DNA of 64,000 bases from an uncultured Gammaproteobacteria bacterium. Lineage in GTDB: Bacteria; Patescibacteriota; Microgenomatia; Levybacterales; UBA12049. Every line of letters begins with the position of its first letter. Within the stretch, counting starts at the first letter, position 1. The stretch lies in contig CAYZZF010000003.1 in assembly GCA_964483115.1 (NCBI GenBank), positions 2,772 to 66,771 on the forward strand, read 5' to 3'. The position numbers and the translations under genes were made by a program. Positions 2,465-32,997 of the stretch are shown one piece after another. The notes beneath the pieces are model-generated. The model was given only the letters and a program-made list of their open reading frames with translations, was not told the DNA's origin and did not search any database.

Positions 2465-3292
2465 ATGGACTCTACTATTGAAAAACAAGAAGACGGGACA
2501 ATAAAACTTACTATTACCATACCTCTTATAAAAATCAAGAAGGCGAAAGAAGAGATTTTGGAAGAAATCGCAAAAGAGGCTAAGATTGCCGGTTTTAGAA
2601 AAGGCAAAGCGCCAAAAAAACTTGTTGAAAAGAAGTTAGACCAGGGAAAACTCCATGAAGAAAGCCTTAAAAAAATTCTGCCTATAGCATATTCTGAGGC
2701 GGTAAAAAAACATAATATTACTCCAATAATGAATCCTAAAATTCACGTAGAGGATCTTTCAGATGATAAAGATTGGAAATTTACTGCCTTAACGTGTGAA
2801 GCACCACAGATTGATCTTACTGAGTATAAAGACGCAATTAAAAAACTCACTGCAAAAAATAAAATTGTAATTCCTGGTAAAGAACAAACGCAAATCAAAC
2901 TTGAGGAGATAATAGATGAGCTTCTTAAAAACATTAAAGTAAAAATTCCAAAAATTATTATTGAGCAGGAAGCGCAAAAACTCCTTGCTCAAACTCTCGA
3001 TGAAATAAAAAGACTGGGTCTTACCCTTGACCAGTATCTTGCATCAACAAATAAAACTATCGAGAGCTTACAGTCAGAATACGCAACAAAGGCTGAAAAT
3101 GATATAAAGATTGAATTTGCTCTTCAAAAGATTGCAGATGAAGAAAACATAACAGTGACTAATGGCGAGATAGATGAAGCGATACAAAAAGCAAAAGATG
3201 AAACGGAACGAGAAAGATTAGAAGCGAATCGGTACCTTTTAGCAAGCATCATTCGTCAGCAAAAAACGCTTGATTTCCTTAAAAGTTTATGA
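2465..3292 (+). CDS. tig: Trigger factor (short form)
   Basis: N-terminal ribosome-binding signature GFRKGKAPKKLVEKK matches GFRPGKVPRKVV. Start moved to the ATG after the tRNA. Shorter than the canonical ~430 aa protein. Confidence 0.55.
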   Translation: MDSTIEKQEDGTIKLTITIPLIKIKKAKEEILEEIAKEAKIAGFRKGKAPKKLVEKKLDQGKLHEESLKKILPIAYSEAVKKHNITPIMNPKIHVEDLSDDKDWKFTALTCEAPQIDLTEYKDAIKKLTAKNKIVIPGKEQTQIKLEEIIDELLKNIKVKIPKIIIEQEAQKLLAQTLDEIKRLGLTLDQYLASTNKTIESLQSEYATKAENDIKIEFALQKIADEENITVTNGEIDEAIQKAKDETERERLEANRYLLASIIRQQKTLDFLKSL

Positions 3293-3298
3293 TAAGGT

Positions 3299-3964
3299 GT
3301 GCACATGAAATCTTTAAAAACAAAAACATCTAAATCAGGAACATTAGATTATATAGATCAAAATCCCATCGAGGCTTTCAAGGAAATAGGGACAGGAGCA
3401 GCGGATTCTCTTGTTAATGACGTAAGCAAACAAGGCGAAAGCGATTTGTGGGAAAAATTGCTCGGCGCAAAAGAAGACTTATCGGACAAATTTTCTGGAG
3501 AATTATCTGAAGGGCAAGAAATTAATTTCAAGAGTCTTAATAAAAAAAGAGCGGAAGAAAAAGACGATTTTGCAGATGTTGAACCTCTTATAGATTACAG
3601 AAGAGAAATTATTCAGGTAGAGCAACGGACTGGACATGAAAACACTAAAGTTATAAGAGCAAAGATTGAAGAAATACTAGTGGAGCTTAAAAAAATTGCA
3701 TCAACTTCTCAAGAAATTGCGATAGAATTCAAACAAATAGCAGTTGAGCAAAGAATAGAAAAACCAGGCGAGTATCATCTTACATTTTTCGAGTGGATGC
3801 TTTCATTAGTCCGCTCAGCTCGAGCAAAAATAGAAGATTCAAGTGCTTGGCTTTCAGTTATGGAAAGCAAAAAGACGCAGAGGACGTACTGGAATATGTT
3901 TGCAAAACACGGGACGACATTTGGACTATCAAACGAGCGAATAGTTGCTACACAAACAGGATAA
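3299..3964 (+). CDS. Hypothetical protein
   Basis: Complete 221-aa ORF, translationally coupled to tig. No recognisable motifs. Confidence 0.35.
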   Translation: MHMKSLKTKTSKSGTLDYIDQNPIEAFKEIGTGAADSLVNDVSKQGESDLWEKLLGAKEDLSDKFSGELSEGQEINFKSLNKKRAEEKDDFADVEPLIDYRREIIQVEQRTGHENTKVIRAKIEEILVELKKIASTSQEIAIEFKQIAVEQRIEKPGEYHLTFFEWMLSLVRSARAKIEDSSAWLSVMESKKTQRTYWNMFAKHGTTFGLSNERIVATQTG

Positions 3965-4068
3965 ACATGACAAATAGGTCTTTTTTACTCCTTAACATCA
4001 TTCTCCTCATTACGGAGAACTGATTGTTTGGGAGAAAAGGTCTCAAGACTAATAAAAGAATAGACATA

Positions 4069-4098
4069 ATCTCCCAAACAGGGAGATTTTTATATTTT
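4069..4098 (+). terminator. Rho-independent terminator (ATCTCCC-aaaca-GGGAGAT plus a T-run)
   Basis: 7-bp GC-rich stem followed by TTTTTATATTTT. It is nested inside a longer inverted repeat, GTTTGGGAGA (4026-4035) / TCTCCCAAAC (4070-4079). Confidence 0.5.
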
Positions 4099-4599
4099 AT
4101 GATAGAAATTATCACAAAGTCAGTAAAACCGCCAAAAGAATCGGTGCGTCCTACGATTGCTATAGAAGAAATTGATGACGTATCGGTTGGCCGCCAAATT
4201 CTTTCGGTAAGAACAATTATTTCGTGGATACCTAACGAAACTGTACTTTGTCTTATAGATACACTCAATCGCAACAATGCTCAATCGGAAAGAGCAAGAC
4301 ACAGTTTAACATTCTCATTAAACAACAATAGCCCAAACACAAACACTTTATACGGACACAATAGGGGACTCTCGGCATATTTTACTTATAATCCTAGTGA
4401 TGAAACAGTAATTGTTGAGTGGGGAACTATTGATCCAAGAGATGGAGTTGCCAAACTGCACACGCATCTTAATCGAGTAATCGATTTTAAAAATAGAAGT
4501 AAAATGGGAATGAAAATAAGCTTAGGATATATTACTCAAGTACAAAGCGGAGTTTGGTTAGCACTTATTGACAATTTGATTAGTTATCAGGAAGAATGA
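4099..4599 (+). CDS. Hypothetical protein
   Basis: The listed ORF 4024..4599 overlaps the terminator. The ATG at 4099 (MIEIITKSV...) sits just after it. Beta-rich, no known motif. Confidence 0.35.
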   Translation: MIEIITKSVKPPKESVRPTIAIEEIDDVSVGRQILSVRTIISWIPNETVLCLIDTLNRNNAQSERARHSLTFSLNNNSPNTNTLYGHNRGLSAYFTYNPSDETVIVEWGTIDPRDGVAKLHTHLNRVIDFKNRSKMGMKISLGYITQVQSGVWLALIDNLISYQEE

Positions 4600-4726
4600 G
4601 CGGAGTCGCCTATGGGAAAAGTTATAAATACTTTACATAGTTCTGGTTTTGTCCCTATAACAGCGGACGGATTTGTCAAGCTTCCCTCATTTTGCTAAAA
4701 TCGACTAGCGATCCATAAATGTGGAT

Positions 4727-4802
4727 GGGCAGTTAGCTCAGTTGGTAGAGCATTCGCTTGACGTGCGAAAGGTCACTGGTTCAAGTCCAGTACTGCCCAC
4801 CA
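4727..4802 (+). tRNA. tRNA-Val (anticodon GAC)
   Basis: GGGCAGT/ACTGCCC acceptor. D-arm AGCTCAGTTGGTAGAGC. Anticodon loop TTGACGT. T-arm GGTTCAAGTCC. Encoded CCA. Confidence 0.8.
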
Positions 4803-4985
4803 ACAATTGACTTTCGGGAATTTTACCCGCCCTCGCTTTCACCGCCGCCGAATTTCGTATTTTGCTTTGCAAAATGCACCGCAAAAGAAACCAAAGAAGG
4901 AATTGTGTTTGCCCCGCCCTTCCCGTGCGCCACAACAAATTTTTTGCTCCCTTTGTCGATAATGATGTTTTATGGTATTATCTGA

Positions 4986-5034
4986 ATAGTACTAAATCTT
5001 TGATGATACTGCAACATAATAGTACTATAAAGAT
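4986..5034 (+). promoter_or_regulatory. Two AATAGTACTA(A/T)A boxes upstream of the XRE gene; candidate operator
   Basis: AATAGTACTAAATCTTT (4986-5002) and AATAGTACTATAAAGAT (5018-5034). Each has a palindromic AGTACT core and their tails are inverted (ATCTTT / AAAGAT). Confidence 0.3.
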
Positions 5035-5039
5035 TACCT

Positions 5040-5255
5040 ATGGCAAAACAAGATTATCCACTTTCAAAAAATCTCAAGAAGCTAAGAGAAAAGAAAGGGC
5101 TTTCGCAAGATCGGCTCGCGAAGCTCGCCGATATCGCCAACAATACGATTATTAAAATTGAACAAGGTGAAAACATGAACCCTCGACTTGATACACTAAA
5201 AAAGATTGCGAAAGCCCTTGAGGTCAAGGTCGATGATTTGATAAATGACAGTTGA
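5040..5255 (+). CDS. XRE-family (Cro/CI-type) HTH transcriptional regulator
   Basis: LKKLREKKGLSQDRLAKLADIANNTIIKIEQGENMNPRLDTLKKIAKAL is a canonical XRE HTH. Confidence 0.7.
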   Translation: MAKQDYPLSKNLKKLREKKGLSQDRLAKLADIANNTIIKIEQGENMNPRLDTLKKIAKALEVKVDDLINDS

Positions 5256-5321
5256 TATTATGAAAAGTTTCGGGGGGTAAACTATAAGTAAGGTCGCGTT
5301 ATAATTAATTTTTTAAAATCT

Positions 5322-6590
5322 ATGGTTAATCAACAAATGTTTGATTACATCAAGCAACAGCTACAACAAGGAGTCAGCCGAGAACAAATCAAAAATTCTC
5401 TTATGGCTAACGGCTGGCAAGAAAATGATATAAACGAAGCTTTTAATATGTTTTCAAATAACCCTGTCCCGTCGCCGCAAGCACCCGCTCCACAAACCAT
5501 AACCGTCTTGCCGGGCGCAGCTGTTATTTTTGGTCAGGCATGGTCGCTCTATAAACAGAGACTAAGAACTTTTTTGGGGATAATGATAATCCCAGTGTTA
5601 GTTTTAATTGGTCTTATGGTGGTGCTTGCGGGCGGCGGATTTTTAGGCCTTACACTTCTTTCTTCAAAATTTGCCGTTGGAGGAATTGGACTTTTGATAA
5701 TTTTGGGAATTGTATTTTTCTTGGCTATTTTCATAAGTCAAGCGTGGGGCCAAACTGCTTTGCTTTATGCAATTAAAGATAGTCAGGAAGGCATAGGGGT
5801 TAGTGAAGCGTATCGCCGCGGTTGGCACAAAATACTTTCTTATTGGCAGGTTGGCCTTTTGGCAGGATTTATTACGATGGGCGGATTTTTATTGCTCGTC
5901 GTGCCCGGAATAATTTTCGCAACTTGGTTCAGCTTGGCTGTATTCGTTTTGATTGCCGAGGACTTGAAAGGAATGGATGCTTTGCTCAAAAGCCGCGAGT
6001 ATGTCAAAGGAAAATGGGTGGAAATTTTCTGGCGTTTCCTTTTCGTCAGTATTATTTCACTCATTATTTCATTAGTTTCAATTCTTATTTTCACCTTCCT
6101 GAAAATTCCGTTTGGCGCGCAAATTAGTCCCTTCGTAATCGGACTATTTTTGACGCCACTAGTAATGAGCTATTCATACTTGGTATACAACAATATCAAG
6201 GCAATCAAAGGCGAAATTGCTTTTGCGCCAACCGGCGGACAAAAAGCAACTTTCGTTATTCTAGGCATTCTTGGTTTATTGTTAATCCCCACGATACTTT
6301 TCTCTACCATTTTCTTGAGTCTTGGTTCTGCAAAGGAAAAAGCGAGAGATGTAAGAAGGCAAACCGATCTGAATCAAATTCGTGTGGGACTTGAATTATA
6401 TTACGACCAGTATAATGCCTATCCGTTCTCGCTGAACGAATTATCGCCTCAATTTTTGCCGACGACACCCGTTGATCCAAAAACAAATATGCCTTACCAA
6501 TATCAATTACAGCCAGACGGCAAAAATTATAAAGCTTGTGCAGAGTTTGAAGCTACTAAAACCGAGAAATGCGTTACTTCGCAGTTCTAA
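5322..6590 (+). CDS. Polytopic membrane protein with a C-terminal pseudopilin/GspG-like globular domain
   Basis: Small N-terminal soluble domain, a Pro-rich linker, then about 6 TM helices. The C-terminus ARDVRRQTDLNQIRVGLELYYDQYNAYP matches the RDxxRxxDLxQIxxALExYY...YP head-domain motif of the pilins at 27045 and 27524. Confidence 0.5.
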   Translation: MVNQQMFDYIKQQLQQGVSREQIKNSLMANGWQENDINEAFNMFSNNPVPSPQAPAPQTITVLPGAAVIFGQAWSLYKQRLRTFLGIMIIPVLVLIGLMVVLAGGGFLGLTLLSSKFAVGGIGLLIILGIVFFLAIFISQAWGQTALLYAIKDSQEGIGVSEAYRRGWHKILSYWQVGLLAGFITMGGFLLLVVPGIIFATWFSLAVFVLIAEDLKGMDALLKSREYVKGKWVEIFWRFLFVSIISLIISLVSILIFTFLKIPFGAQISPFVIGLFLTPLVMSYSYLVYNNIKAIKGEIAFAPTGGQKATFVILGILGLLLIPTILFSTIFLSLGSAKEKARDVRRQTDLNQIRVGLELYYDQYNAYPFSLNELSPQFLPTTPVDPKTNMPYQYQLQPDGKNYKACAEFEATKTEKCVTSQF

Positions 6591-6830
6591 TTGATTTGTG
6601 GTAAAGATATGGAAAAATATGAAGAAATAAAAAAACCCATTAAGCAAATATTTTTTGATAATTTTCTTGGAGGCATTGCCTGGGCACTTGGAGCAACATT
6701 TGGTCTTTCGCTCATAGTTACATTTCTAACTGTTATTTTAAAAAATATTGATTTTATACCTATTTTCGGAGGCTTTGTTTCAAAAATAACAAGTTATGTT
6801 TTACAAAATAACCCTCACTTGGTAAAATAA
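6591..6830 (+). CDS. Small membrane protein
   Basis: 79 aa with one or two hydrophobic helices. Abuts the preceding gene. Confidence 0.3.
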   Translation: MICGKDMEKYEEIKKPIKQIFFDNFLGGIAWALGATFGLSLIVTFLTVILKNIDFIPIFGGFVSKITSYVLQNNPHLVK

Positions 6831-6834
6831 GCAA

Positions 6835-8088
6835 ATGAATGACTCCAAAAGACCAATCAAATTGACAGAAAGTCACCAACAAATAGGACAAGAACAGGAT
6901 TTATTTACTTTTTCAGACCTTGTCGGCTCGGGTCTTCCACTTTTTACACCTAAGGGCGCAATACTTCGAAAAGTGCTTAATGACTATATAGATGAACTTT
7001 TAATAAAAGCAGGCTATCAATTTGTTTGGATTCCTCATATCGCAAGAAAAACGCTTTACCAAAAATCTGGCCATCTTGAAAAATTTTCGCAAGACATGTT
7101 TCCTGTTATGAAAGCAAAAGGACGGGAGTATATCTTAAAGCCTGCTAATTGCCCCCACCATATACAAATTTTTTTAAGAAAACCCTGGTCATACAGAGAA
7201 TTACCGCAAAGATATGCCGAAAGCTCAACCCAATATAGATCCGAACAATCGGGAGAACTTGAAGGACTGACGAGAGTTTTGGGAATGACGCTTGATGACT
7301 CACACGTTTTCGCCCGCCAAGATCAGATAAAAGAAGAGTTCAAAAAAGCACTCGAAATAAATAAACAAATGCTTTCTGATTTTGGCCTTTCCCACTGGAT
7401 AAGACTCTCTACCTGGAACGCCAAAGATAGAAAAAAATATTTGGGCGATGAAAAAACATGGGAAAACATGCAAAATCTTATGGAGGAAATTTTAAAGGAG
7501 CTTAAAGTTAAATATAAAAGGACTGAAGGCGAAGCTGCATTTTATGGGCCTAAGATGGATTTAATAGTAACTGATTCTCTTAAGAAGGAATGGCAATTAT
7601 CAACAATCCAAGTTGATTTTAATCTTCCGCAGCGTTTTAATCTTTCATACACAGACAAAACAGGAAAACAAAAAAGATTAGTAATGCTTCATAGGGCAAC
7701 TTTTGGATCTTACGAACGATTCTTGGCAATGATAATAGAACACTATCAAGGAATATTTCCTTTGTGGCTTTCGCCTGTTCAGATAGTTATACTTCCAATT
7801 GCAGATCGACATTTTGAGCTTGCAAAAAAGATTTACAAAATATTAATAGAAAATGGGGTCCGGGCAGAAGTTAATGACAAATCGCAAACCCTGCCTTCTA
7901 AAATCCGCGATGCTACTTTACAAAAAGTACCATATATGAGTATAATAGGAGATAGAGAAGTAGAAAAATCAAAACTTGAGGAAGAAAAAATCGTATCGGT
8001 TCGAACAAGAGGTGGAAAAGACTTGGGGCAAGTTAAACTTGTCCAATTTTTAAAAAGGCTACAAGAAGAAATTGATAAAAAGGTCTAA
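6835..8088 (+). CDS. thrS: Threonyl-tRNA synthetase (N-terminally truncated: catalytic core plus anticodon-binding domain only)
   Basis: Class II motifs ANCPHH and RVLGMTLDDSHVF, plus the C-terminal anticodon-binding fold. Lacks the TGS and editing domains. Confidence 0.8.
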   Translation: MNDSKRPIKLTESHQQIGQEQDLFTFSDLVGSGLPLFTPKGAILRKVLNDYIDELLIKAGYQFVWIPHIARKTLYQKSGHLEKFSQDMFPVMKAKGREYILKPANCPHHIQIFLRKPWSYRELPQRYAESSTQYRSEQSGELEGLTRVLGMTLDDSHVFARQDQIKEEFKKALEINKQMLSDFGLSHWIRLSTWNAKDRKKYLGDEKTWENMQNLMEEILKELKVKYKRTEGEAAFYGPKMDLIVTDSLKKEWQLSTIQVDFNLPQRFNLSYTDKTGKQKRLVMLHRATFGSYERFLAMIIEHYQGIFPLWLSPVQIVILPIADRHFELAKKIYKILIENGVRAEVNDKSQTLPSKIRDATLQKVPYMSIIGDREVEKSKLEEEKIVSVRTRGGKDLGQVKLVQFLKRLQEEIDKKV

Positions 8089-20691: not shown

Positions 20692-21426
20692 ATGAGAATA
20701 ACAATCTTGACCCTTTTTAAAGAAATGTTTGGAGGACCCTTTGATTATTCAATCGTTAAAAATTCAATAGACAAAGGGGTAATTAATATTGATTATATAA
20801 ATATCAGGGATTTTGGCATAGGAAAGCACAAAATTGTAGACGACAAACCATACGGAGGAGGTAAGGGAATGGTAATAAGAGTCGATGTTTTAAATAAGGC
20901 AATAGAAGCGGCAAAGCAGAAATTCAAAGAAAAAGGCAAAAAAATGAGTCCGAAAAAACAAAAAGTTATTCTCCTTGATCCCGCTGGTTCCACCTTTAAC
21001 CAAAGAAAGGCAGTGGAATTATCGAAACTTTTGCATCTAATACTTCTCTGTGGTCATTATGAAGGAGTTGATGCAAGAATTAGAAGTTTTGTTGACGAAG
21101 TAATATCTATAGGCGATTTTATTCTAACAGGAGGAGAAATACCTGCTATGTTAATAGTTGACAGTGTTGTAAGGCTTGTACCCCATGTATTAACAAGTGA
21201 GGCAGTTAAAAAAGAATCTTTTTCTCCTTATCTTGAACACCCTCAATATACAAGACCGGAAACATATAAAAATCTTAAGGTTCCAAAGGTTTTAATGTCG
21301 GGAAACCACAAAAAAATAGAAGAATGGAGAAAAAAAGAATCCCTTAAAATAACTCTAAAAAATAGACCTGATTTAATTAAAAGGGGGACGCGGCTGAAGA
21401 CGCGGAAGGAGAGGAAGAAGAAGTAG
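20692..21426 (+). CDS. trmD: tRNA (guanine37-N1)-methyltransferase
   Basis: MRITILTLFKEMF...YGGGKGMV and a SPOUT fold. rimM and rplS are absent from the usual operon. Confidence 0.8.
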   Translation: MRITILTLFKEMFGGPFDYSIVKNSIDKGVINIDYINIRDFGIGKHKIVDDKPYGGGKGMVIRVDVLNKAIEAAKQKFKEKGKKMSPKKQKVILLDPAGSTFNQRKAVELSKLLHLILLCGHYEGVDARIRSFVDEVISIGDFILTGGEIPAMLIVDSVVRLVPHVLTSEAVKKESFSPYLEHPQYTRPETYKNLKVPKVLMSGNHKKIEEWRKKESLKITLKNRPDLIKRGTRLKTRKERKKK

Positions 21427-22099
21427 CTATAATACTTGGCGTCAGGTTGGAGTTCCAAAAAGAAAGTTCTGAGATAAGTTTAAGCCCCTCTGAGGAAATA
21501 GTAGTTATAGGCTCATCATTTTTTAATCCAGCTCTCCTCATTGGTTTATAATAAAATAATATTGTAATTGATGAAAAATTATTGCTTTCACTAATAGTTA
21601 TAACTTCTGATAGGGGAAGTGTTTTGTAAAGTTCATTTAGAAAAGAAACAGTCTTTTTTGGATCTGCTTTAATATTCAAAGACAACTTGAGGAAAGGAAA
21701 ACCCGAAACATTAATAGAGGTTTGTGATAAATCGCCCACTTGAAAATCGTAATCTGAAAGCGAAACACCAGATTTAATTGCTGCAAGCGATATGGCATTA
21801 AGAATTCCTTCAAAATCTTTACCAGCGGGTAGAGCAGAGGACACAAGATTAAACTGCGAATCAAGAGTAGAATCAGATAGATTAGAAAGGAAATTTAGAT
21901 TATTTTGAAGAGTTATAAGCCTTTTATTTTCGCTTTTTGCGTTTTTGCTAAGCACCACCAACTCACGAATTCTTGGTATAATTACAGTCAAAAAAAGAAT
22001 TAAACAAACTAAAATTATAAATATAAATAAAATGTGCTCCCTATACTTAGCATAGATAATTTTGAGTGTATTAATATCTACGTTTAATTTTTCATTCAT
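21377..22099 (-). CDS. pilO: Type IV pilus assembly protein PilO-like
   Basis: Single TM helix then a periplasmic domain. Last gene of the pilM-N-O arrangement. Confidence 0.45.
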   Translation of the reverse strand: MNEKLNVDINTLKIIYAKYREHILFIFIILVCLILFLTVIIPRIRELVVLSKNAKSENKRLITLQNNLNFLSNLSDSTLDSQFNLVSSALPAGKDFEGILNAISLAAIKSGVSLSDYDFQVGDLSQTSINVSGFPFLKLSLNIKADPKKTVSFLNELYKTLPLSEVITISESNNFSSITILFYYKPMRRAGLKNDEPITTISSEGLKLISELSFWNSNLTPSIIATSSSSPSASSAASPF

Positions 22100-22632
22100 A
22101 ATATATCGGTAGTTACAGAAAGAGAGTAAGTGCCATTTTGCACATTAGCCGTGAGAGTATCAACTGTAATATCTTTGATTATTTGTTTTTTTTTTGCCAT
22201 ATCTATTAAATTGTTTAAGAAATTGTTTATCAAAAGCAGAGAGTTTGAAGAAACAACAAGTGTAACTTTACTTTTGTCAATAGATATAGAATTTATTGAA
22301 ACTCCGTCTGGCACCTTCTTAAGAAAAGTGTTTATTGTGATATCATAATTTTGCCTATTCTTTATAATTTCTGAAATACCATCTAGTCTATCTTTTATAA
22401 TAGCCAGTTTTGCTTGTTTCTGTTGTAAAAATGACATATTATAAAACAGTTCATTTTCCTTCTTCTTAATTCGGGCTGGGGACAGTTGCTCACTTAAAAA
22501 AAATAAGAGAATTGATATGACTAAAACAGCTGTAAGAGAACTTAGCGCTAATGTCTTCAGAATTTTTAGCGTTCCTAAAGATTTTTCAGTATCGATCTGG
22601 GCAGGCGGAAGAAGATTTATATCATTTTTCAT
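22096..22632 (-). CDS. pilN: Type IV pilus assembly protein PilN
   Basis: N-terminal INLLP motif followed by a TM helix, the PilN hallmark. Confidence 0.6.
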   Translation of the reverse strand: MKNDINLLPPAQIDTEKSLGTLKILKTLALSSLTAVLVISILLFFLSEQLSPARIKKKENELFYNMSFLQQKQAKLAIIKDRLDGISEIIKNRQNYDITINTFLKKVPDGVSINSISIDKSKVTLVVSSNSLLLINNFLNNLIDMAKKKQIIKDITVDTLTANVQNGTYSLSVTTDIL

Positions 22633-23662
22633 AATCCCTCATCGCCAGTCCTACGGCGATAGTATACTCTGGTGCGTCATCAAGAATCTCTCTAGGTAAT
22701 TCTTGATTTCTAAGTATTTTCCATGGATTAGCAATAACAGTCTCGATATTTACTTTATTTGTAAAAAACAAATCTATTCCAGGAAGTTTTGCTGTTCCTC
22801 CCGAAAGGATTATCTGTCTTATCGGTTTATCTCCTTTATATTTTTCAGAATAAAATGCCAGTGCTTTCCTAACCTCGGCTAATATAGAATCAAGGATTGG
22901 CTCTGTAGCCTTTCCAATTTTCCCTCCAAATATCCCCGTAGAAACTCCGTAACTTTTTTTATATTCTTCGGCCTGTTTTTGCGTAAGTCCAAAATCTGCT
23001 TCAATCGCTCGGTTAATGGCAGAACCTCCGACAGGAATTGAATAGATAAAAATCATAACATTATCCCTTACAATCGCAAGTGCCGTACTGGCTGATCCAA
23101 TATTGACAATAAGAGACGTAGGAAAATTGTCACTTGTGACCAATGCTCTTATAGTTGCCAATATCTGAGTTTCTATTGCATTTATTGTAAGTCCGGCCAT
23201 CGACAAAATTTTCTGATATTTATTTATAAGAAGGGTTGGTGACCCAACTATCAAAATCTGCATTTTTTCTTCCATTATGGCTTGCGGCGGTCTTTTTAGC
23301 ACACTCCAAGCTAGTTTAACTGATGACAGAGGTACAGGAATATGTCGTTCAGCTTCCCAATAGATAGCAGAGGAAAGTTCTTTATCGGATAATACCGGCA
23401 TTTCTATAACATTTGTATATACCTGGTTCTCCGCAAGAGCAATGTTTACATACTTTGTGGTAATCTTGGCTTCATCAATACTTCTTACCAAAGCTCTGGC
23501 CATTTCTTCTTCATCAAGAGGAGACTCTGATAACATCCCTTTTGGAGGAGCTGGGGTGATAAGAGATGCATCAAGTATAAATTCCTCCTTTTGATAAGAT
23601 AACCAAACAATTTTGATAGTTGATACACCGATATCAAGGCCGAAAGGTCTTTTATTCATCAT
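22622..23662 (-). CDS. pilM: Type IV pilus assembly protein PilM (actin-like ATPase fold)
   Basis: GLDIGVSTIKIV and an FtsA/PilM-like fold. Adjacent to pilN. Confidence 0.7.
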   Translation of the reverse strand: MMNKRPFGLDIGVSTIKIVWLSYQKEEFILDASLITPAPPKGMLSESPLDEEEMARALVRSIDEAKITTKYVNIALAENQVYTNVIEMPVLSDKELSSAIYWEAERHIPVPLSSVKLAWSVLKRPPQAIMEEKMQILIVGSPTLLINKYQKILSMAGLTINAIETQILATIRALVTSDNFPTSLIVNIGSASTALAIVRDNVMIFIYSIPVGGSAINRAIEADFGLTQKQAEEYKKSYGVSTGIFGGKIGKATEPILDSILAEVRKALAFYSEKYKGDKPIRQIILSGGTAKLPGIDLFFTNKVNIETVIANPWKILRNQELPREILDDAPEYTIAVGLAMRDYEK

Positions 23663-23667
23663 GAGCT

Positions 23668-24498
23668 TTATCTTGGCGAAAAAATTCCGTATGTAAAATA
23701 CTCGGCAGGAAGCTGAGGAAAGCTTTGAAAAACATTAACCTTACGCGTTACAATATTGCCTGATGTACCAGATGTCCCGATTGATGAAATCATAGAACCC
23801 TGAGAATAAAAAGCTGTAGTAGTACTGCTTGCTCCTATATAAGTATTCGTGTATATAGGAATAACCCTTGCAATTAAACCCGAAGTGACGCTAATTGTTG
23901 CTGAATAGGGGAAACTTTTGCCACCTGCAGTTCCGCTTCCCGAAGTTGAGCTAAAACGATTAGAATTTGCTCTTGTAATGCAGGGATCATATGCATACCG
24001 GGTAAGTGTCTGCGAGGTTTGTGTTCCTGAGATAACTATTATCTCCAAAGCTGCAGGCACATTATTAGGATTATTACAATTGCCCGAAGTATTTCCCCAA
24101 TAGATAGTTAAATTACTTGGACCACTAGGGGACCATGGTTTAGTATAATCGGGGTTATTGCCATTATGCGGAACAAGCCACAAGTCAACGCCTTCATCTT
24201 GCGGTACGAGATTGCCTCCATTTAGTAAGATGCTTGTGCCGCCAACCGCAGCTATATCTGTAGTGTAGCTCGTATTATTAGAGAATGTGCTGCTGAGTCC
24301 TGTACTTGATTGAAGTTGTCGTTGAATTCCAGCTTCGGCAGCAGACAGAGCTTTTGCGGAATCTGCCTCCTCTGTTGATATTTTAAGATTAGTTATACTT
24401 CTGGAGATTACCGATAAACCAACTGTAAGAGAAACAACCATTATCAAAACAACTATCAGAAGGATTTGTCCTTTTTGCTTATATTTCATACTATCCAT
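23668..24498 (-). CDS. PilX-like minor pilin / pilus-associated protein
   Basis: N-terminal GQILLIVVLIMVVSLTVGLSVISRS...EEADSAKALSAAEAGI resembles PilX_N. Ser/Thr/Gly-rich C-terminus. Confidence 0.4.
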   Translation of the reverse strand: MDSMKYKQKGQILLIVVLIMVVSLTVGLSVISRSITNLKISTEEADSAKALSAAEAGIQRQLQSSTGLSSTFSNNTSYTTDIAAVGGTSILLNGGNLVPQDEGVDLWLVPHNGNNPDYTKPWSPSGPSNLTIYWGNTSGNCNNPNNVPAALEIIVISGTQTSQTLTRYAYDPCITRANSNRFSSTSGSGTAGGKSFPYSATISVTSGLIARVIPIYTNTYIGASSTTTAFYSQGSMISSIGTSGTSGNIVTRKVNVFQSFPQLPAEYFTYGIFSPR

Positions 24499-24572
24499 TA
24501 TAATTTTAGCGTATCAATCATTTTTACTGGTGTCAACCCCGTTTGATGAGTGCAATCCCATGTAGCGTCGGG

Positions 24573-26078
24573 TTAAAAATTTCTCATAGTCACTGACGTT
24601 TGAAATGGGATAGATGCTTTTTTCTCGAAAAAATTACTTGAGGTCTTACTAGAAAGAGTAAAATTTATCCCAATTATTGGAGGGGAAACAATATTATCTT
24701 GAGAACAAGTAAAAAAACAGGAATCAACAGAAACAGAATTATTAGTATCTACGAGATTGGCTCCGTTTGATGCAATTTGGCCATTGGGAGAACGCTGAGA
24801 AGAATCTAAGCAGGAAAAGATTGTAGTTCCTCTGTCAAAAGAAGTTATTTTTACATAATTGTATTGAATTAGAGGCGGGGTTGGAGTAGGGGATGGAGCT
24901 GGAGTAGGAGATGGGGTTGGACCAGGCGTAAAAGTAGCGGTTGGTGTGGGTGTGGGGGCCGCAGGGTTTATTGAAACTCCTCCAATTGCCCAATAGCGAG
25001 AGAATGAAAATGTCCATGACATTGTTACAGAATCTGCTCCAGGTTTTGTACTAGAGGCTCCTAATTCAACGCTACTGGCTACCGTGTTCCATAATTGAGT
25101 TTGACCAGAACCAACAGTAGGAGAACTAGAACTGTAAGCTGCAAGATTATCCTCAACTACTGCTCCTGTTTTACTTACAACATTAACAGAGGGATTTTTA
25201 CTATAACCAGAGGCAGTTGTATAGTTACTAAGAGGGGCTGTTTGATCAACTCCTGACCAGCTTGTAGCTCCTCCCACAGGATAGACGTAAGTTGAAAAGT
25301 TTACTTTAATTGTAGCGGTGCCGCTTGTGGGATTAATAAGATACCACATTTCTGATTGGTCTTGATTGATATCCTTTATCCCACCTATTCTTGTAAGAGA
25401 TGCTGTTCCATAAGTTATACTAGTTATGGAAGTGGAACTTCCATAAAAGGAGACACTAACCAAGAGAAGCCTATTGCTGTTCGAACCTACTGTATGGTTC
25501 CAGCTAAGAGATTTTGCATATGAACCAGCCGTATAAGATTTTGCATCAAGAGTTGGAGAAGCAGCTGCAACAGCTTCTTTTATTGGCGATTTTTCAAACT
25601 TAGGAATTAAGTCTTCTAACTTTGAAAATAAACTTGACGTTTTTTCTTTGCCTAGGCTGACAAATCCCTGAATAAACTCAGCAATTTTCGAAAAAAAACT
25701 TTCTTTTTTGCGAATGATAATAGGTGAATAAGAAAGAGGATAACTGCAATCTGCAGTGTAGTTAACTCCGTCAGTGCTTACTCCGTCAAAGTTTTGGGCA
25801 TATTGTATCATCTTTCCCATTTGTGAAATCGCACTATTACCATTTCTTCTAACAATATCTATAGTATTTGTTTTACTTGTTCCACGAAGAGAGGAAACTA
25901 AAATAGCTGAGACAACCGCACCTACAGTAAGGATGACAAACATCACAACCAAAAGCTCGATTAAGGTGAATCCTGCTCGCCGCCGGCTCGAGTTTAAAGT
26001 TAAAAGTTTAAAGTTAAAAGTTAATAAAGAAGGGGGACTAAAATTTTTAATTTTGGATTTTAATTTTGAGTTTTGCAT
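24573..26078 (-). CDS. Large type IV pilin-like protein (501 aa) with a Pro/Thr-rich tract
   Basis: Prepilin cleavage/methylation motif RRRAG|FTLIELLVVM. PAAPTPTPTATFTPGPTPSPTPAPSPTPTPP linker. The leader peptide is encoded by AT-rich heptamer repeats. Confidence 0.6.
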   Translation of the reverse strand: MQNSKLKSKIKNFSPPSLLTFNFKLLTLNSSRRRAGFTLIELLVVMFVILTVGAVVSAILVSSLRGTSKTNTIDIVRRNGNSAISQMGKMIQYAQNFDGVSTDGVNYTADCSYPLSYSPIIIRKKESFFSKIAEFIQGFVSLGKEKTSSLFSKLEDLIPKFEKSPIKEAVAAASPTLDAKSYTAGSYAKSLSWNHTVGSNSNRLLLVSVSFYGSSTSITSITYGTASLTRIGGIKDINQDQSEMWYLINPTSGTATIKVNFSTYVYPVGGATSWSGVDQTAPLSNYTTASGYSKNPSVNVVSKTGAVVEDNLAAYSSSSPTVGSGQTQLWNTVASSVELGASSTKPGADSVTMSWTFSFSRYWAIGGVSINPAAPTPTPTATFTPGPTPSPTPAPSPTPTPPLIQYNYVKITSFDRGTTIFSCLDSSQRSPNGQIASNGANLVDTNNSVSVDSCFFTCSQDNIVSPPIIGINFTLSSKTSSNFFEKKASIPFQTSVTMRNF

Positions 26079-26093
26079 TTTAAATTTTGAATT

Positions 26094-26573
26094 TTATGGC
26101 GCTGTCACACTTGAATTATTGTTAACACAAGAAACAATTTTTATCTGGTGACAAAATGGATTTGAAACGCTTGTGCATTTGGTGTCTGACCAAGACACCA
26201 ATGCTGTTATTAATGCCCCAGTACTTGAACAGTCCATAGATTTTTGTGAAATATCAATTTCTCTTACGAAAAGATTATCAATATTTGTACCGCAGCTAAT
26301 TCCTTTCTGAGTAAGGTCTCTATTTTTATCAAGACAATAATAAGTATTATCGTAGGTTGAAAAATCTGCCCAATTAGATTGAGCAAGTTTTCTAATTATC
26401 TCTATTCCTTCCTGAGCGTATTGTGTAGCCACGTTTTGATTCTTGCTAAATTGGACATTGGTGAGAGATGACATGACAATAATTACTATTGCAGCAATTA
26501 TAACTGTGGCTGTCCCCAATGCTATCAAAACCTCAATCAATGTCTGTCCAATTTGTGAGCTGTTCTTTTTCAT
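26094..26573 (-). CDS. Type IV pilin/pseudopilin
   Basis: G|QTLIEVLIALGTATVIIAAI is a class III signal peptide. Confidence 0.6.
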   Translation of the reverse strand: MKKNSSQIGQTLIEVLIALGTATVIIAAIVIIVMSSLTNVQFSKNQNVATQYAQEGIEIIRKLAQSNWADFSTYDNTYYCLDKNRDLTQKGISCGTNIDNLFVREIDISQKSMDCSSTGALITALVSWSDTKCTSVSNPFCHQIKIVSCVNNNSSVTAP

Positions 26574-27064
26574 CGAATATTCCCTGATGGATCAACTGTT
26601 ATATTGCTTGTATAACCATACCCTGTTACGCTAATTGTAATACCTGAAGATGGAGAAACTCCACCGGTAATAACATTAAAAAAAATAGTCGTTGGTAGTT
26701 GTATTGGATTAGTTATGCTAACATTTGGAGGAAGATTTACGGTTGAAGCTGGATATTTACCTATTGAGGAAACAGCATCTAGTTCATAACTGGTAGATGA
26801 TAATATAACTACTTGATATCCATTAAGCACGCAGGTGGGTACAGACGCGCACTGACTTGGTTTAACTTGATTTGAAGCACGGGATTTTGCAAGACTTAAC
26901 ATAGTTGCTAAATTATTTGCAGCAGAATTAACAGTTTGTAAACGATTGTAATTTACAAATGAGGCAATTCCGACAATTGATAAAATCGCAATAACAGAAA
27001 TGACAACGATCAGTTCGATAAAAGTAAATCCTTCTGAAGACTTTTTATGGATTAGTAAGAACAT
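26570..27064 (-). CDS. Type IV pilin-like protein
   Basis: EG|FTFIELIVVISVIAIL. The listed ORF was shortened to an internal Met to limit overlap with the upstream pilin. Confidence 0.5.
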   Translation of the reverse strand: MFLLIHKKSSEGFTFIELIVVISVIAILSIVGIASFVNYNRLQTVNSAANNLATMLSLAKSRASNQVKPSQCASVPTCVLNGYQVVILSSTSYELDAVSSIGKYPASTVNLPPNVSITNPIQLPTTIFFNVITGGVSPSSGITISVTGYGYTSNITVDPSGNIR

Positions 27065-27527
27065 AATAATAGTTACTATTGCATCCTGTTCCGCTTCCGT
27101 CCGGAGACGTAGTTGTGCCTTGAGAATCATTGGTGTTTTCAAGACACGCGCCTAGAATATAAGTTATGCCATCATTGCTTGAGTAATAGTACATACCGCT
27201 ATTATAATAAGAACTTCCGTTGGGATCACAAGGAATTTTTTGCATATAAGTGGTGGGTGGACTTCCGGCAGTCATAGCAGATCCACAGGCAGGTAGCGAT
27301 GATGGATAGCTTCCCTCATCCGCTCTGTAAAATTCCAGTGCTGACTGTATCTGACGAAGGTCAGACTTTCTTTGACTATCTCTTGCTCTCTGCCGAACGC
27401 CAATAAAATTTACAAAAAGAATACTCGCCAAAACTCCGATAATTGCAATAACAACCAAAAGCTCAATTAGAGTGAATCCTCCGTTGAGATTTGAGATTTG
27501 AGATTTGAGATTTGAGATTTTCTTCAT
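27045..27527 (-). CDS. Type IV pilin
   Basis: GG|FTLIELLVVIAIIGVLA, then RARDSQRKSDLRQIQSALEFY. The leader carries (TGAGATT)x4 heptamer repeats. Confidence 0.7.
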   Translation of the reverse strand: MKKISNLKSQISNLNGGFTLIELLVVIAIIGVLASILFVNFIGVRQRARDSQRKSDLRQIQSALEFYRADEGSYPSSLPACGSAMTAGSPPTTYMQKIPCDPNGSSYYNSGMYYYSSNDGITYILGACLENTNDSQGTTTSPDGSGTGCNSNYYYVLTNP

Positions 27528-28138
27528 GGTGTTACATTTGAACTTGTTGCTCCATAATTACAAATATAACTCGAGGAGGATCCACAGTAAACACCGACTG
27601 GAACATTAGTACATTGTGCTCCTTGATTGCACGCCTGAGGATCTTGTGCGCCTCGCTCTAAAGATGTATAAAGATAGTATGATTGCGCTCCTGTTGTAGG
27701 AGAGGAGTAATACACGTAATTTTGTGAAGAAAGTGGATCATTGGGAACAGAATTTATGTATGGACTAAAATTAGTGGTAGAAAGAGTTGATCCCCAAACT
27801 ACACAATTTCCATCCAACCTTTTTATTCTAAAATCAGTAGCTGTACACTGAGGAGGATAATACCCAAAATCGTTGTAGTATGTCTCTAATGCCCTTTGAA
27901 TTTGCGCCAGATCTGATTTTCGCTGAGCATCTCTTGCTTTCATCAATTGCCCCACTGGGTTTATAATTGTAAACAAAAAGACTGCCATAATCCCCAGTAT
28001 CGCTATTACCAATAACAGCTCAACTAGGGTAAAACCATAAAAATTATTTTTTCTGAAAGAAAGTAGCTTAAAAAGGTTCCAAGAGCCAAAAATGGGCCGA
28101 AAGGAATTGTTGCGATTTTTAACCTCTTTTTCTTCCAC
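27524..28138 (-). CDS. Type IV pilin
   Basis: YG|FTLVELLLVIAILGIMA, then ARDAQRKSDLAQIQRALETYY. Long leader. Overlaps the 3' end of pilD, so the true start may be internal or non-ATG. Confidence 0.6.
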   Translation of the reverse strand: MEEKEVKNRNNSFRPIFGSWNLFKLLSFRKNNFYGFTLVELLLVIAILGIMAVFLFTIINPVGQLMKARDAQRKSDLAQIQRALETYYNDFGYYPPQCTATDFRIKRLDGNCVVWGSTLSTTNFSPYINSVPNDPLSSQNYVYYSSPTTGAQSYYLYTSLERGAQDPQACNQGAQCTNVPVGVYCGSSSSYICNYGATSSNVTP

Positions 28139-28818
28139 ATAATTAGTATGAGGCCAGCAACTGCTCCTGTCAAGAAGGCTATATATAAAGCTATGATAAT
28201 CTTTGGAAATCCTAGCAGCAATCCCAAAAAAAAGACAAGTTTAACATCTCCTAAACCCATCCCTCTACCTTTGGTAATAAAGTATAAAAATAAAAAGAAT
28301 AGAAACACACCAATTGAGGAGACAATATTAGATATCAAGATATTAGAATGTAAGAATATTAAGTAAAGAAAGGAGATCGCAATTGCTGGGTAAACAATTT
28401 TATCTGGGATAATGCCATATTTAAGATCGGTAAAAAAAATTACTATCAAAGAGGAAACAATAAACCAATAATACAGGGCATCAATCATATACTTGATAGT
28501 TAACACTTGATACCCAATACTTATTTGGGGTAATAGATAAACAGCCGATATAAATAAAACTGCCGTTATTAATTCGACAATGGGATAATAAACGGAGATA
28601 GAAGAGTGACAAAGCCTACATTTACCTCTTAGAAGAAAAAATGAAAGAATGGGAATCATATCAAACCAGACAAGTTTTTTTCTGCACTTGTCACAATACG
28701 ATCTTCCTTTAAAAGGGGACTCATCATTCGGAAGACGATCAATAAGAACATTTAAAAAGCTCCCTACTGCAAGACCTAGAATGAATGATAAAGAAATGAA
28801 TGATAAAGAAAACAACAC
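28024..28818 (-). CDS. pilD: Prepilin peptidase (A24 family)
   Basis: N-terminal CxxC...CxxC zinc motif (CDKCRKK...CRLCH) and polytopic peptidase_A24 helices. Confidence 0.75.
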   Translation of the reverse strand: MLFSLSFISLSFILGLAVGSFLNVLIDRLPNDESPFKGRSYCDKCRKKLVWFDMIPILSFFLLRGKCRLCHSSISVYYPIVELITAVLFISAVYLLPQISIGYQVLTIKYMIDALYYWFIVSSLIVIFFTDLKYGIIPDKIVYPAIAISFLYLIFLHSNILISNIVSSIGVFLFFLFLYFITKGRGMGLGDVKLVFFLGLLLGFPKIIIALYIAFLTGAVAGLILIMWKKKRLKIATIPFGPFLALGTFLSYFLSEKIIFMVLP

Positions 28819-28918
28819 TATTTATAGAATAGCATAAAACAATACAGTCAAAACAAAAACAGCTTAAATAATATGAATACTATAATATGAGTACTATAGT
28901 GTACTATTATATTTTTGA

Positions 28919-28977
28919 ATGTAGCGAGTCTGTTTCACCTTAGTCTGTTTCACCTTCCAAGTGAAATAGCTTCGCTA
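28919..28977. repeat. REP-like structured repeat left of the RAYT gene
   Basis: GTAGCGAG...CTTCGCTAC outer stem enclosing two GTCTGTTTCACCTT copies and a CACCTTCCAAGTGAAA hairpin. Confidence 0.5.
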
Positions 28978-28998
28978 CCTGTTACTATCTTAAGAAAC

Positions 28999-29664
28999 TT
29001 ACTCTAAAACTAGATGTTTTATTTCTTCTAATCTTCTTCCGTAATCAATATTATCCAAAAGAAATTCCTTATAATCATCTAATGTTTTGAATTGCTCAAG
29101 GATTGTATCAGCTAGAACCAAACCAGATCTTCCTGCTAAAAAATCTGGTAATGATGACCATGAATAAGATAATAAATCCTGCTCATCAACGACGGTTGAA
29201 ACAACTGGGTTCAAATGAATATACCGGGAAACATGCAATAATTGCTCATTGGATTCTATATGAGAGGATTTAAATACACCTTGAAATACAGGTCCAATTC
29301 TATTGTATTTAGTATTGAAATATTTAGTATAGCTATTCGTAAATTTACTAAGAAATGTAGAGATTCCTTTGTCTTTAGTTTGTCTTAGAAGAAAATGGAA
29401 ATGATTCGGCATAAAAACAAAAGAAATTATTTCAACAAATTTTTCGCTTTTTTCCATATCCGAAATTATTCGATTGCGTTCTTCTTGAGAAAACTTCTTA
29501 AATCTCGAAAGCCTCACAGGCGGAGAAATAAAACGGTAATAGGATAGTGTTAGAAGAGCTTGTTTATAATCATTTTTGTTTAAAAATGTCGGTTGACGCG
29601 CAACTCCACGATTAAAAATATGATAATATTCTTCATTTACTAAAGGGGTAGATCTGTAAGACAC
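28999..29664 (-). mobile_element. IS200/IS605-family Y1 (HuH) transposase, REP-associated tyrosine transposase (RAYT)-like
   Basis: YHIFNRGV, HuH motif MPNHFHFLL, catalytic-Tyr region SRYIHLNPV, and C-terminal YSWSS. Matches the TnpA_REP/RAYT pattern. Flanked by REP-like hairpins. Confidence 0.7.
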
Positions 29665-29710
29665 ATTCTAAAATTAGCAGAATATTAAGATTGTGTCAAC
29701 AGGTGACGAG

Positions 29711-29752
29711 GCTGTTTCACCTTCCAGGTGTAATAAATCAGGTGTAATAAAT
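29711..29752. repeat. REP-like repeat right of the RAYT gene
   Basis: GCTGTTTCACCTTCCAGGTG has a CACC-TTCCA-GGTG hairpin and is a near-copy of the left-flank core. Followed by a CAGGTGTAATAAAT direct repeat. Confidence 0.5.
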
Positions 29753-29939
29753 GGAATAAAGAGATTCTTGCCGAATTATCTCTAGATCAGATTTTACAAT
29801 TTCAAGAAGATTTATAAGGTCGGGCCTCGTTGACTTCTGTTCTGGACGATGAAAATAAAAAATTAAAAGATTATTTTAATAAAGTAAAACCTTCGGGGGG
29901 GGTCGTAAAACTGAAACAGAGATTTTACAACAAGTATAT

Positions 29940-30557: not shown

Positions 30558-30573
30558 TTTTTTGTATATATTT

Positions 30574-30603
30574 AGTATAGGCAGATAATTTTAGACTTGT
30601 CAA
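30574..30603 (-). promoter_or_regulatory. Sigma70-like promoter (TTGACA, 18-nt spacer, TATACT) for the pilin gene
   Basis: Minus-strand read: cTTGACAagtctaaaattatctgccTATACTaaatatatacaaaaaATG. Confidence 0.5.
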
Positions 30604-30646
30604 GGAGGTAAAATAAGGCTAATCTTCGTAAAAGTCAGCAGTAAAT

Positions 30647-31852: not shown

Positions 31853-31855
31853 AAC

Positions 31856-32920: not shown

Positions 32921-32997
32921 AGACTCCCTTCGGTCATAATAAACAAATACTTCAAATATTAAAATATTTGTTTATGGTAGTATTGGTATTATTTTCA

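Follow-up and report, generated by a model that had tools for sequence, protein, structure and literature searches.

Organization of the locus

We describe here a membrane protein gene and the small regulatory gene that precedes it in a 64-kb stretch of contig CAYZZF010000003.1 (positions 2,772 to 66,771 of the forward strand), referred to throughout as the window. The window derives from a Patescibacteria/CPR genome low in guanine plus cytosine (GC; ~35%) and carries genes for DUF5660 and DUF5665 proteins. At the locus of interest a tRNA-Val gene is followed by a gene for a 71-residue XRE-family helix-turn-helix (HTH) protein and then, in the same orientation and after a gap of 66 bp, by an open reading frame (ORF) for a membrane protein of 422 residues. 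All three lie where an earlier reading of this DNA (the sequence-only reading) had placed them. Our principal observation is that the C-terminus of the 422-residue protein is related to the GspG-type pilins and is predicted to be held, uncleaved, on a core of transmembrane (TM) helices. The features of the locus, together with those of the type IV pilus genes discussed later, are listed in Table 1.

Table 1. Features of the XRE/membrane protein locus and of the type IV pilus genes in the window
Feature	Position	Strand	Basis or remark
tRNA-Val (anticodon GAC)	4727-4802	+	ARAGORN; Rfam RF00005, 73 bits
Left-end GC-rich repeat, GGGAATTTTACCCGCCCTCGCTTTCACCGCCGCCGAATTTCG followed by a short hairpin	4816-4882	+	Comparison with the loci of relatives
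XRE promoter, sigma-70-like (TTGTCG, 17-nt spacer, TATTAT, TG upstream)	4953-4981	+	Consensus scan
Operator-like box 1, AATAGTACTA, AGTACT palindrome core	4985-4994	+	Directly 3' of the -10 hexamer
Operator-like box 2, AATAGTACTA	5018-5027	+	33 bp past box 1; 13 bp before the XRE start codon
XRE-family HTH protein, 71 residues, HTH domain only	5040-5255	+	Pfam HTH_3
Spacer motif GGGGGGTAAACTATAAGTAAGGTCGCGTTATAAT, perfect TATAAT at its end (5300-5305)	5272-5305	+	Conserved in relatives
Membrane protein ORF, 422 residues, stop codon included	5322-6590	+	N-terminal domain, linker, seven TM helices, pilin head
Residues 1-46, three-helix N-terminal domain	5322-5459	+	AlphaFold2 helices 4-15, 20-29, 34-46
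Residues 47-62, disordered Pro-rich linker	5460-5507	+	pLDDT <50 for residues 47-58
Residues 63-297, amphipathic helix and six TM helices, UPF0259/GPDPase_memb-like core	5508-6212	+	
Residues 311-337, seventh TM helix (TM7), in place of pilin alpha1-N	6252-6332	+	
Residues 338-422, GspG-type pilin head (alpha1-C, alpha-beta loop, three strands)	6333-6587	+	
Type IV pilus cluster	21377-34731	-	PilM, PilN-like, pilins, PilD, PilC, PilB, likely PilT
PilD homologue	28024-28818	-	In pilus cluster

A pilin head at the C-terminus of a polytopic protein

We built a full-length AlphaFold2 (AF2) model of the 422-residue protein on a 62-sequence alignment and modelled residues 298-422 separately. The full model, with a predicted local distance difference test score (pLDDT) of 84, begins with helices in residues 4-46, passes through a disordered segment (47-58) and six TM helices, and ends in a single unbroken 60-residue helix (305-364) followed by three strands (393-396, 403-409 and 414-419). 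The small N-terminal domain and Pro-rich linker described in the sequence-only reading are thus present as a predicted three-helix domain and a disordered segment. Its count of about six TM helices holds for the core; the pilin-like helix is a seventh, which makes seven in all. In the separate model the pLDDT was 87.6 (~90-95 in the head), and the overall shape of the C-terminus as modelled is the lollipop of a type IV pilin: alpha1 is predicted to exceed the minimum of 50 residues characteristic of this fold, its N-terminal half is hydrophobic, and a small antiparallel sheet follows. In the geometry of the model, the final 112 residues take on the form of an entire pilin.

Sequence comparison likewise indicated that the head is homologous to pilins. 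A profile of the head, built without the TM helix, matched the two pilins encoded in the window at 27045-27527(-) and 27524-28138(-) with E-values of 3.1e-14 and 2e-11, and BLASTP of the C-terminus of the membrane protein against these pilins gave an E-value of 5e-13. A profile of the C-terminal module, when compared with the PDB, matched geopilin (2.6e-7) and PulG (5wda, 5.5e-5), as well as soluble GspG heads at 1.7e-3 (2kep) to 0.07, and Pfam T2SSG (PF08334) was found in 24 of 27 C-terminal modules of the family (best 7.6e-5). The proposal of a GspG-type domain homologous to the pilins at 27045 and 27524 is well supported by these searches. Residues D343, P368, D385, Y392 and C417 of the head are invariant, and C406 is present in at least 90% of sequences. 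The features common to the module and to the GspG/PulG-type pseudopilins and type IV pilins (PF08334; 5wda, 2kep, 3g20, 4d40, 6t8s) include the long alpha1 with its membrane-embedded N-terminal half, the ARD..R..D...I...L..YY....YP signature of alpha1-C and the alpha-beta loop, the DPxT...Y.Y strand region, the small antiparallel sheet and a C-terminal Cys pair. When the model of residues 298-422 was compared with the PDB by Foldseek, the four best matches and 7 of the best 14 were type IV pilins, among them those of Shewanella (4d40, probability 0.91) and Thermus (4bhr), the S. sanguinis pilus, C. difficile PilA1 (6t8s, probability 0.84) and the gonococcal pilus. The structural comparison suggested by the sequence-only reading therefore yields a predicted pilin-like fold with weak Foldseek E-values, and of the two lines of evidence for homology that from sequence is the stronger.

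The remainder of the protein is less readily classified. The N-terminal domain has conserved residues at D8, Y9, I10, G17, I23, G31 and W32; its profile gave a best E-value of 0.1 against the PDB, weak DUF494 matches appeared in 9 of 62 members, and profile searches matched it to no signalling family. For the six-TM core, matches to PF06790 (UPF0259/YciC) at E<=0.1 were obtained with 23 of 62 family members (the best at 2e-5), most of them scoring under the gathering threshold, and PF10110 (GPDPase_memb) matched 2; the window protein itself gave no PF06790 match above threshold. The core appears to be distantly related, at the superfamily level, to these two families, with which it shares the six TM helices, short outer loops, positively charged inner loops and a VPGIIF hairpin. 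What sets the window protein apart from them is its three-helix domain at the N-terminus, its seventh TM helix and the head that it is predicted to place outside. Our literature search found no published function for the UPF0259/YciC or GPDPase_memb families and nothing of relevance on DUF975, and PADLOC and PHROGs held no family covering the 422-residue protein.

Absence of prepilin features

Residue F311, at the start of TM7, falls in the alignment on residue F1 of mature PulG and of the mature window pilin. Residue T310 occupies position -1, where prepilins are cleaved and where just 3 of 62 family members have Gly; position +5 is Gly in 46 sequences, Ala in 14 and Glu in none. The N-methylation motif PF07963, which is matched by the window pilin 27045-27527, was not matched by the 422-residue protein in Pfam searches. 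The statement in the sequence-only reading that a prepilin cleavage site is lacking agrees with these counts, which argue that the membrane protein is not a prepilin, and that the module, having neither Gly(-1), Glu5 nor the methylation motif, stays covalently tethered to the membrane core, from which no extraction into a fibre would be possible.

We nevertheless considered that the protein might be a prepilin with a giant leader, cut by a peptidase just before TM7 so that a small pilin is released into the fibre. The alignment of F311, the frequent Gly at position -5 (42/62) and the PilD homologue in the window would fit such processing. Set against these are the counts at -1 and +5 and the missing methylation motif just described, the size of the supposed leader (310 residues with six TM helices), and the retention of TM7 in homologues that lack the head or have other tails. 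We regard this alternative as very unlikely. A TM7 with a similar G-x-x-G...P pattern occurs in headless homologues and in homologues from outside the Patescibacteria, which indicates that this helix belongs to the core family; the head was therefore most likely grafted onto an existing seventh helix, as opposed to a whole pilin having been appended.

The tethered state sets the module apart from known pilins. The GspG/PulG pilins have leaders of 6-30 residues, whereas the window module is C-terminal on a 310-residue polytopic protein and would be unable to follow the canonical path of processing and extraction into a fibre. Modular pilins have been described: Caulobacter CpaL has an N-terminal pilin module and a vWA domain, and CpaL and other modular pilins have a prepilin cleavage site and carry the extra domain to the pilus tip (PMC12607857). 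CpaL resembles the window protein in combining a pilin-fold module and a second functional module in one chain, and both match the Thermus pilin 4BHR; however, the pilin module is N-terminal and cleavable in CpaL, and C-terminal and predicted to be locked in the membrane in the window protein. We found no description of a pilin head on a polytopic core in the literature. The sequence tests thus distinguish the polytopic core with its uncleavable head from prepilins, and the earlier remark that this is not a standard type IV pilus component appears justified.

Orientation in the membrane

Three kinds of observation bear on the side of the membrane on which the head lies. In 62 sequences, Lys plus Arg averaged 16.4 in the segment before TM1 together with loops 2-3, 4-5 and 6-7, and 1.3 in loops 1-2, 3-4 and 5-6. 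In the same number of sequences the heads contained 127 Cys residues (about two each), as compared with 9 in total in the 337-residue cores. Finally, the tails that follow TM7 in other homologues (PilP, PsbP-like, Peptidase_S41 with PDZ, CARDB and TSP3 repeats) are of types that are typically extracytoplasmic. Because of this charge bias, the Cys pair and the alternative tails, we place the head outside the cell and the N-terminal domain in the cytoplasm, the latter as in the sequence-only reading. The zinc ribbons present at the N-terminus of some homologues are consistent with a cytoplasmic N-terminus.

Distribution of the family and its alternative tails

A word-indexed search returned 222 homologues of the membrane protein, and an exhaustive search returned 1,897 clusters (50% identity) at E<=1e-30. 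The GspG-type head was carried by 88 of 124 new representatives of the 50% clusters and by ~27 of 80 species-level genome loci. Close homologues of the window protein are all labelled Patescibacteria, and the records of the ~27 head-bearing loci comprise Patescibacteria lineages, unclassified "bacterium" and a few bins of other taxa; we suspect that the few non-Patescibacteria bins bearing the head are mislabelled. The core alone, with tails of other kinds, was also found in metagenome-assembled genomes (MAGs) of Nitrospirota, Desulfobacterota, Geobacter and Acidobacteria. A second, distinct type of pilin head replaces the GspG-type head in P0074, P0082, L020, L031, L033, L044 and L052. By these sequence comparisons, the core-plus-pilin-head architecture is common in Patescibacteria and uncharacterised, and it would combine two known kinds of module, a pilin head and a UPF0259-like core.

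This distribution also disposes of the possibility that a frameshift or a missing stop codon has artificially fused a UPF0259 gene to a pilin gene. Nothing beyond the unusual order of domains speaks for such an artefact, to which we assign practically no probability; the architecture is continuous in more than 100 independent assemblies at 40-80% identity, which refutes it, and identical copies were present in two other runs.

We note also that an ORF of 315-317 residues with no Pfam match directly follows the membrane gene in L227 (1588-2535) and L011 (7276-8229). The two ORFs are 75% identical to each other, and the ORF is absent from the window.

Relation to type IV pili

Type IV pili are central to host attachment, movement and DNA uptake in Patescibacteria. 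The window encodes a full pilus system. Its cluster (Table 1) also includes ORFs of 240 (21377-22099) and 276 residues, three or four small pilins (a further one at 29940-30557), PilC at 30647-31852, and a 501-residue protein in which an N-methylation motif and a Pro/Thr-rich region were noted; a 354-residue ATPase ORF (31856-32920) is likely to be PilT, judging from sequence motifs alone. Between pilD and a pilin gene lies a 221-residue ORF (28999-29664), from the appearance of its sequence a possible transposase of the IS200/RAYT type.

A more direct connection between the core and a pilus machine was observed at L034, a contig of a MAG labelled Nitrospirae (JACRGU010000012; diderm, 40% GC). 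Here a pilus operon at 2755-6955 consists of pilM (PilM_2, 1e-79), pilN (2e-19), pilO (1.5e-31) and a gene, the start of which overlaps the pilO stop, for a 439-residue fusion protein. The first ~300 residues of this protein are 52% identical to the window core, and a PilP domain (3.6e-16) follows TM7. The next gene, which runs off the contig, encodes a pilQ-like lipoprotein in which an AMIN domain and a secretin-N0-like motif are recognisable. From this gene order the core in L034 plainly appears to serve as the membrane anchor of a part of the pilus machine, with seven TM helices standing in for the usual lipid anchor of PilP inside pilMNOPQ. The members of the PilP/PilMNOP subcomplex are, as the window protein would be, membrane-anchored, non-polymerising parts of a type IV filament machine that act in the periplasm; the window protein differs in having a pilin head and no PilP domain and in being encoded outside the pilus cluster. 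The archaeal FlaF and FlaG are archaellin-fold proteins that are anchored in the membrane as stator parts. By analogy, anchored non-polymerising machine parts such as PilP and FlaF/FlaG would be the nearest functional counterparts of the window protein.

We put forward, with confidence somewhat short of even, an account in which the architecture described above provides a fixed, pilin-like docking surface for the type IV pilus system of the cell, and in which the XRE gene, as described below, is the lead gene of a cassette and not a partner of the membrane protein; the function in this account is inferred. The head would contact pilins of the membrane pool or the base of the pilus, and through docking the core and the cytoplasmic N-terminal domain would become linked to the pilus system. 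The protein would be neither a fibre subunit nor a signal sensor. Pilus docking had been one of two roles offered in the sequence-only reading, and we retain it as the best functional guess; it gains from the core::PilP fusion in pilMNOPQ and loses in that synteny with pilus genes is at the level of chance.

Several observations weigh against docking, or against parts of the evidence for it. The membrane gene lies outside the pilus cluster of the window, 15-28 kb away, and pilus genes were found within 5 kb in 4 of 80 species-level loci (L020, L034, L040 and L072), which is about what chance would give in a small genome. The core::PilP fusion is nearly unique (one cluster and one possible fragment), and hence shows what the core is capable of and not its constant role. 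The window protein taken alone gave no Pfam match at E<=1 for its C-terminus and an E-value of 0.17 with TIGR01710 (GspG), and the Foldseek E-values were 0.06-0.8 with template modelling scores of 0.35-0.49. Since TM7 is already present in headless homologues, its alignment with pilin alpha1-N may reflect hydrophobicity alone, and the absence of Glu5 argues against canonical packing with the N-termini of pilins. P0059 and P0083 have no pilin head, and what follows TM7 in them is a copy of the three-helix "GW" domain of the N-terminus; this is at odds with a strictly cytoplasmic N-terminal domain, and our topology model leaves it unexplained. Finally, the core also occurs with no tail or with tails unrelated to pili (PsbP_2 or PsbP-like, HEAT/TPR, the protease Peptidase_S41 with PDZ, CARDB and TSP3), and it may be a generic anchor.

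The last of these observations is the starting point of an alternative that we consider possible, if less probable than docking. The pilin head could be a generic ectodomain, that is, a binding or spacer fold reused without any link to pili and directed for example at a cell wall, a host surface or another envelope protein, while the core has a job of its own. In this view the head was recruited as the small, disulfide-stabilised extracellular fold most readily to hand in Patescibacteria. The variety of tails, the lack of enrichment of pilus genes nearby (4/80), the absent Glu5 and the status of TM7 as a family feature that was not imported with the head would all be expected if this were so. 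It accounts less well for the occurrence on the same core of three independent tails of pilus type, namely the GspG-type head, the second pilin head and the PilP domain in pilMNOPQ, or for the closeness of the head, over its full length, to the genome's own pilins.

The XRE protein and its promoter

The HTH identity of the 71-residue protein, as first proposed from sequence, was confirmed by a match to Pfam HTH_3 (PF01381) of 59.4 bits against a curated cut-off of 23 (E 3.6e-16). At least 970 homologues were found, the best 120 of which are 84-100% identical; PADLOC and PHROGs gave generic matches to C-protein, capH and repressor families. The AGTACT-core repeats noted earlier in the XRE promoter region correspond to the two exact AATAGTACTA boxes at 4985-4994 and 5018-5027, which flank the region of the XRE transcription start on either side. 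No other copy occurs in the 64 kb, for which 0.13 would be expected. Both boxes are invariant in 7 loci (the window, L094-L097, L099 and L100), and the -35 and -10 hexamers are conserved across the alignment of 7 XRE-cassette loci. From this arrangement we consider it probable that XRE is an autorepressor that acts through the predicted operator boxes. No RNA family was detected by Rfam in the leader (4803-5039), the fold energy of which is unremarkable (z = -1.45).

In these properties (an HTH-only protein of ~70 residues, with two palindrome-cored boxes at its own promoter) the gene is similar to those of small XRE repressors such as the cI/Cro-like proteins and the controller (C) proteins of restriction-modification (R-M) systems. 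In contrast to these regulators, XRE proteins of the window type head cassettes with variable cargo, most of it membrane or secreted proteins. A search of viral contigs for the double-box pattern gave 6 matches, none with an XRE gene downstream. As a separate observation, in L005 (256-2391) a 70-residue XRE protein, 46% identical to that of the window, is encoded directly before an N6_N4 methyltransferase and a MjaI-type restriction enzyme; judging from this gene order, members of the XRE group in that genome would act as R-M controller-type genes.

The spacer between the XRE and membrane genes contains a further conserved element. At 5272-5305 a run of G residues is followed by TAAACTATAAGTAAGGTC and then by a TATAAT-like hexamer, and this arrangement is kept after the XRE gene or its remnant. 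The motif GGGGGGTAAACTATAAGTAAGGTCGCGTTATAAT precedes the membrane gene by 50-72 bp in L010, L011/12, L014 and L228, and it also follows the XRE gene in L094, although the cargo there is different. Possibly, GGGGGGTAAACTATAAGTAAGGTCGCGTTATAAT with its TATAAT is the membrane gene's own promoter or the junction at which cassette cargo begins. Transcription of the membrane gene in the window would probably start either at the XRE promoter, as part of a joint transcript, or from the TATAAT of 5300-5305.

The two genes in related genomes

By DNA-level comparison we identified XRE remnants, and fragments at contig edges, in the closest relatives (>=68% identity). Within this group, only the window and L227 have an intact XRE gene; in L227 a 68-residue XRE protein, 70% identical to that of the window, is encoded 66 bp upstream of the membrane gene. 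L010/L014 retain the C-terminus of XRE at a contig edge, L003/4 contain a frameshifted remnant, and in L228-230 and L011/12 the last few XRE codons alone remain. The membrane gene is intact in all of these loci. In contrast to the close relatives, no XRE gene was present beside any of the 80 species-level homologues of the membrane protein. The co-occurrence of the two genes that the sequence-only reading wished to see examined is therefore confined to close relatives, and the pair is ancestral to a small clade only.

These results bear directly on the proposal that the two proteins form a sensor/regulator pair, in which the membrane protein senses a cue outside the cell and controls XRE through its N-terminal domain. 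The adjacency, common orientation and identical 66-bp spacing of the genes in the window and L227 would suit such a pair, as would the possession of one cytoplasmic and one outside domain. However, XRE has been reduced to a remnant in L003/4, L011/12 and L228-230 beside an intact membrane gene, it is absent at all of the species-level loci, and XRE genes 84-97% identical precede serpins, RDD/DUF3592 proteins and other proteins. The decay of XRE beside an intact membrane gene indicates that the membrane protein is independent of XRE and, in our judgement, rules out the pair, which we rate as scarcely credible. The related suggestion of an anti-sigma-like sensor is abandoned on the same ground, and also because profile searches found no sigma or anti-sigma domain.

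A tRNA gene on the same strand is often found within 30-650 bp upstream of the membrane gene (in the window, L003, L005, L011, L013, L017, L020, L022, L024, L028 and L074), an arrangement frequent in close relatives. The identity of the tRNA varies (Val, Gly, Cys, Asp, Pro, Leu, Ile, Ala and Met). We examined tRNA adjacency as a possible trait of the family and rejected it, since it was found at 10 of 80 species-level loci and at 34 of 466 control ORFs (p = 0.12).

A proposed repeat-bounded cassette led by XRE

XRE is much better conserved than the membrane gene beside it. The XRE gene is contained in a unit of ~475 bp (4826-5300) that comprises a 214-bp leader, the promoter, both boxes, the gene and the 3' motif. 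The DNA of this unit is 78-85% identical across loci with entirely different downstream genes (L094-L100, L108, L109, L121, L124, L127, L131, L138 and L144, and further L147, L153, L161 and L170). The cargo at such loci consists of serpins, RDD/DUF3592 membrane proteins and other proteins, and never of a membrane protein of the 422-residue type (0/18). A gene for a large serine recombinase, with Resolvase, Recombinase and Zn_ribbon_recom domains, lies divergently upstream in 7 of the 11 loci for which enough upstream sequence is available. ORFs of 154 and 163 residues between the recombinase and XRE genes are of low complexity and are not conserved, and we have treated this region as non-coding.

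The left repeat of the window (4816-4882) is 93% identical over 57 bp in L003. An inverted copy closes the cargo on its distal side in L094, with arms of 56 nt at 88% identity (59-114 and 2178-2233), and in L099, with arms of 135 nt at 100%. In L099 the 135-nt pair (3687-3821/7315-7449) encloses XRE and six ORFs, while a second pair of 92 nt (1982-2073/3600-3691; 99%) flanks the serine recombinase gene, and the whole is located between tRNA-Gly and tRNA-Gln. From the arrangement of its repeats, the L099 unit looks like an invertible or mobile unit. In the membrane-gene clade, the left-end element is found inverted ~55-95 bp past the membrane gene stop in L009/L010/L014 and L228-230, from which we infer that the unit in this clade consisted of left repeat, XRE, membrane gene and right repeat. 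The right repeat was not found in the window, in which the left repeat, promoter, boxes and XRE gene are present; the non-coding recombinase-associated region has no homologue in the window, the recombinase gene itself not having been searched for.

We propose that XRE regulates itself and leads a cassette bounded by repeats, that the membrane gene would ride as its cargo in one sub-lineage, and that the right repeat either was lost from the cassette in the window or was never part of it. The likeness to serine-recombinase invertons (Hin/Gin-type) and to large serine recombinase elements resides in the long inverted repeats around XRE and cargo and in the recombinase adjacent at 7 of 11 loci; it is incomplete in that the window lacks a right repeat and that the cassette is known from sequence alone. 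We found no such serine recombinase repeat elements in Patescibacteria in the literature.

The sequence-only reading had considered that the locus could be a small acquired module and had suggested that the tRNA-Val gene might mark an attachment (att) site. A direct-repeat search of the 64 kb with 17- and 25-nt tRNA-Val 3' ends, at up to 3 mismatches, detected no second copy and only the tRNA gene itself, so that the att site is not upheld. The left repeat of the window, its inverted copy past the membrane gene in close relatives, and its presence around XRE and cargo in other genomes, often beside a large serine recombinase, make acquisition plausible in itself, by a route other than a tRNA att site.

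Downstream of the membrane gene, at 6835-8088, is an ORF for a threonyl-tRNA synthetase of only 417 residues (tRNA-synt_2b and anticodon-binding domain in identical contigs), which appears to be without the usual N-terminal TGS/editing region.

Implications

A bolder form of the docking account can be formulated, which we consider rather improbable. The 422-residue protein would be an "anchor pilin", a mimic that cannot be extracted and that nucleates, roots or gates the base of the fibre in an envelope lacking PilP and PilQ, with its N-terminal domain reporting the state of the fibre, and its gene would be the cargo of a new class of XRE-led cassettes, bounded by inverted repeats and associated with large serine recombinases, that shuffle surface-protein genes among these bacteria.

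Returning to the more limited account, in which the head is a fixed docking surface, the family represents a concrete candidate for a basal or accessory component of the pilus in Patescibacteria. Were the head only a reused fold, the family would still show that the pilin head has a general use as an outside domain in these organisms. The results also bear on annotation, since several members of the family have wrongly been named PilE, ComGC or PulG. For its part, the XRE cassette may be a route for the exchange or switching of surface-protein genes among Patescibacteria genomes.

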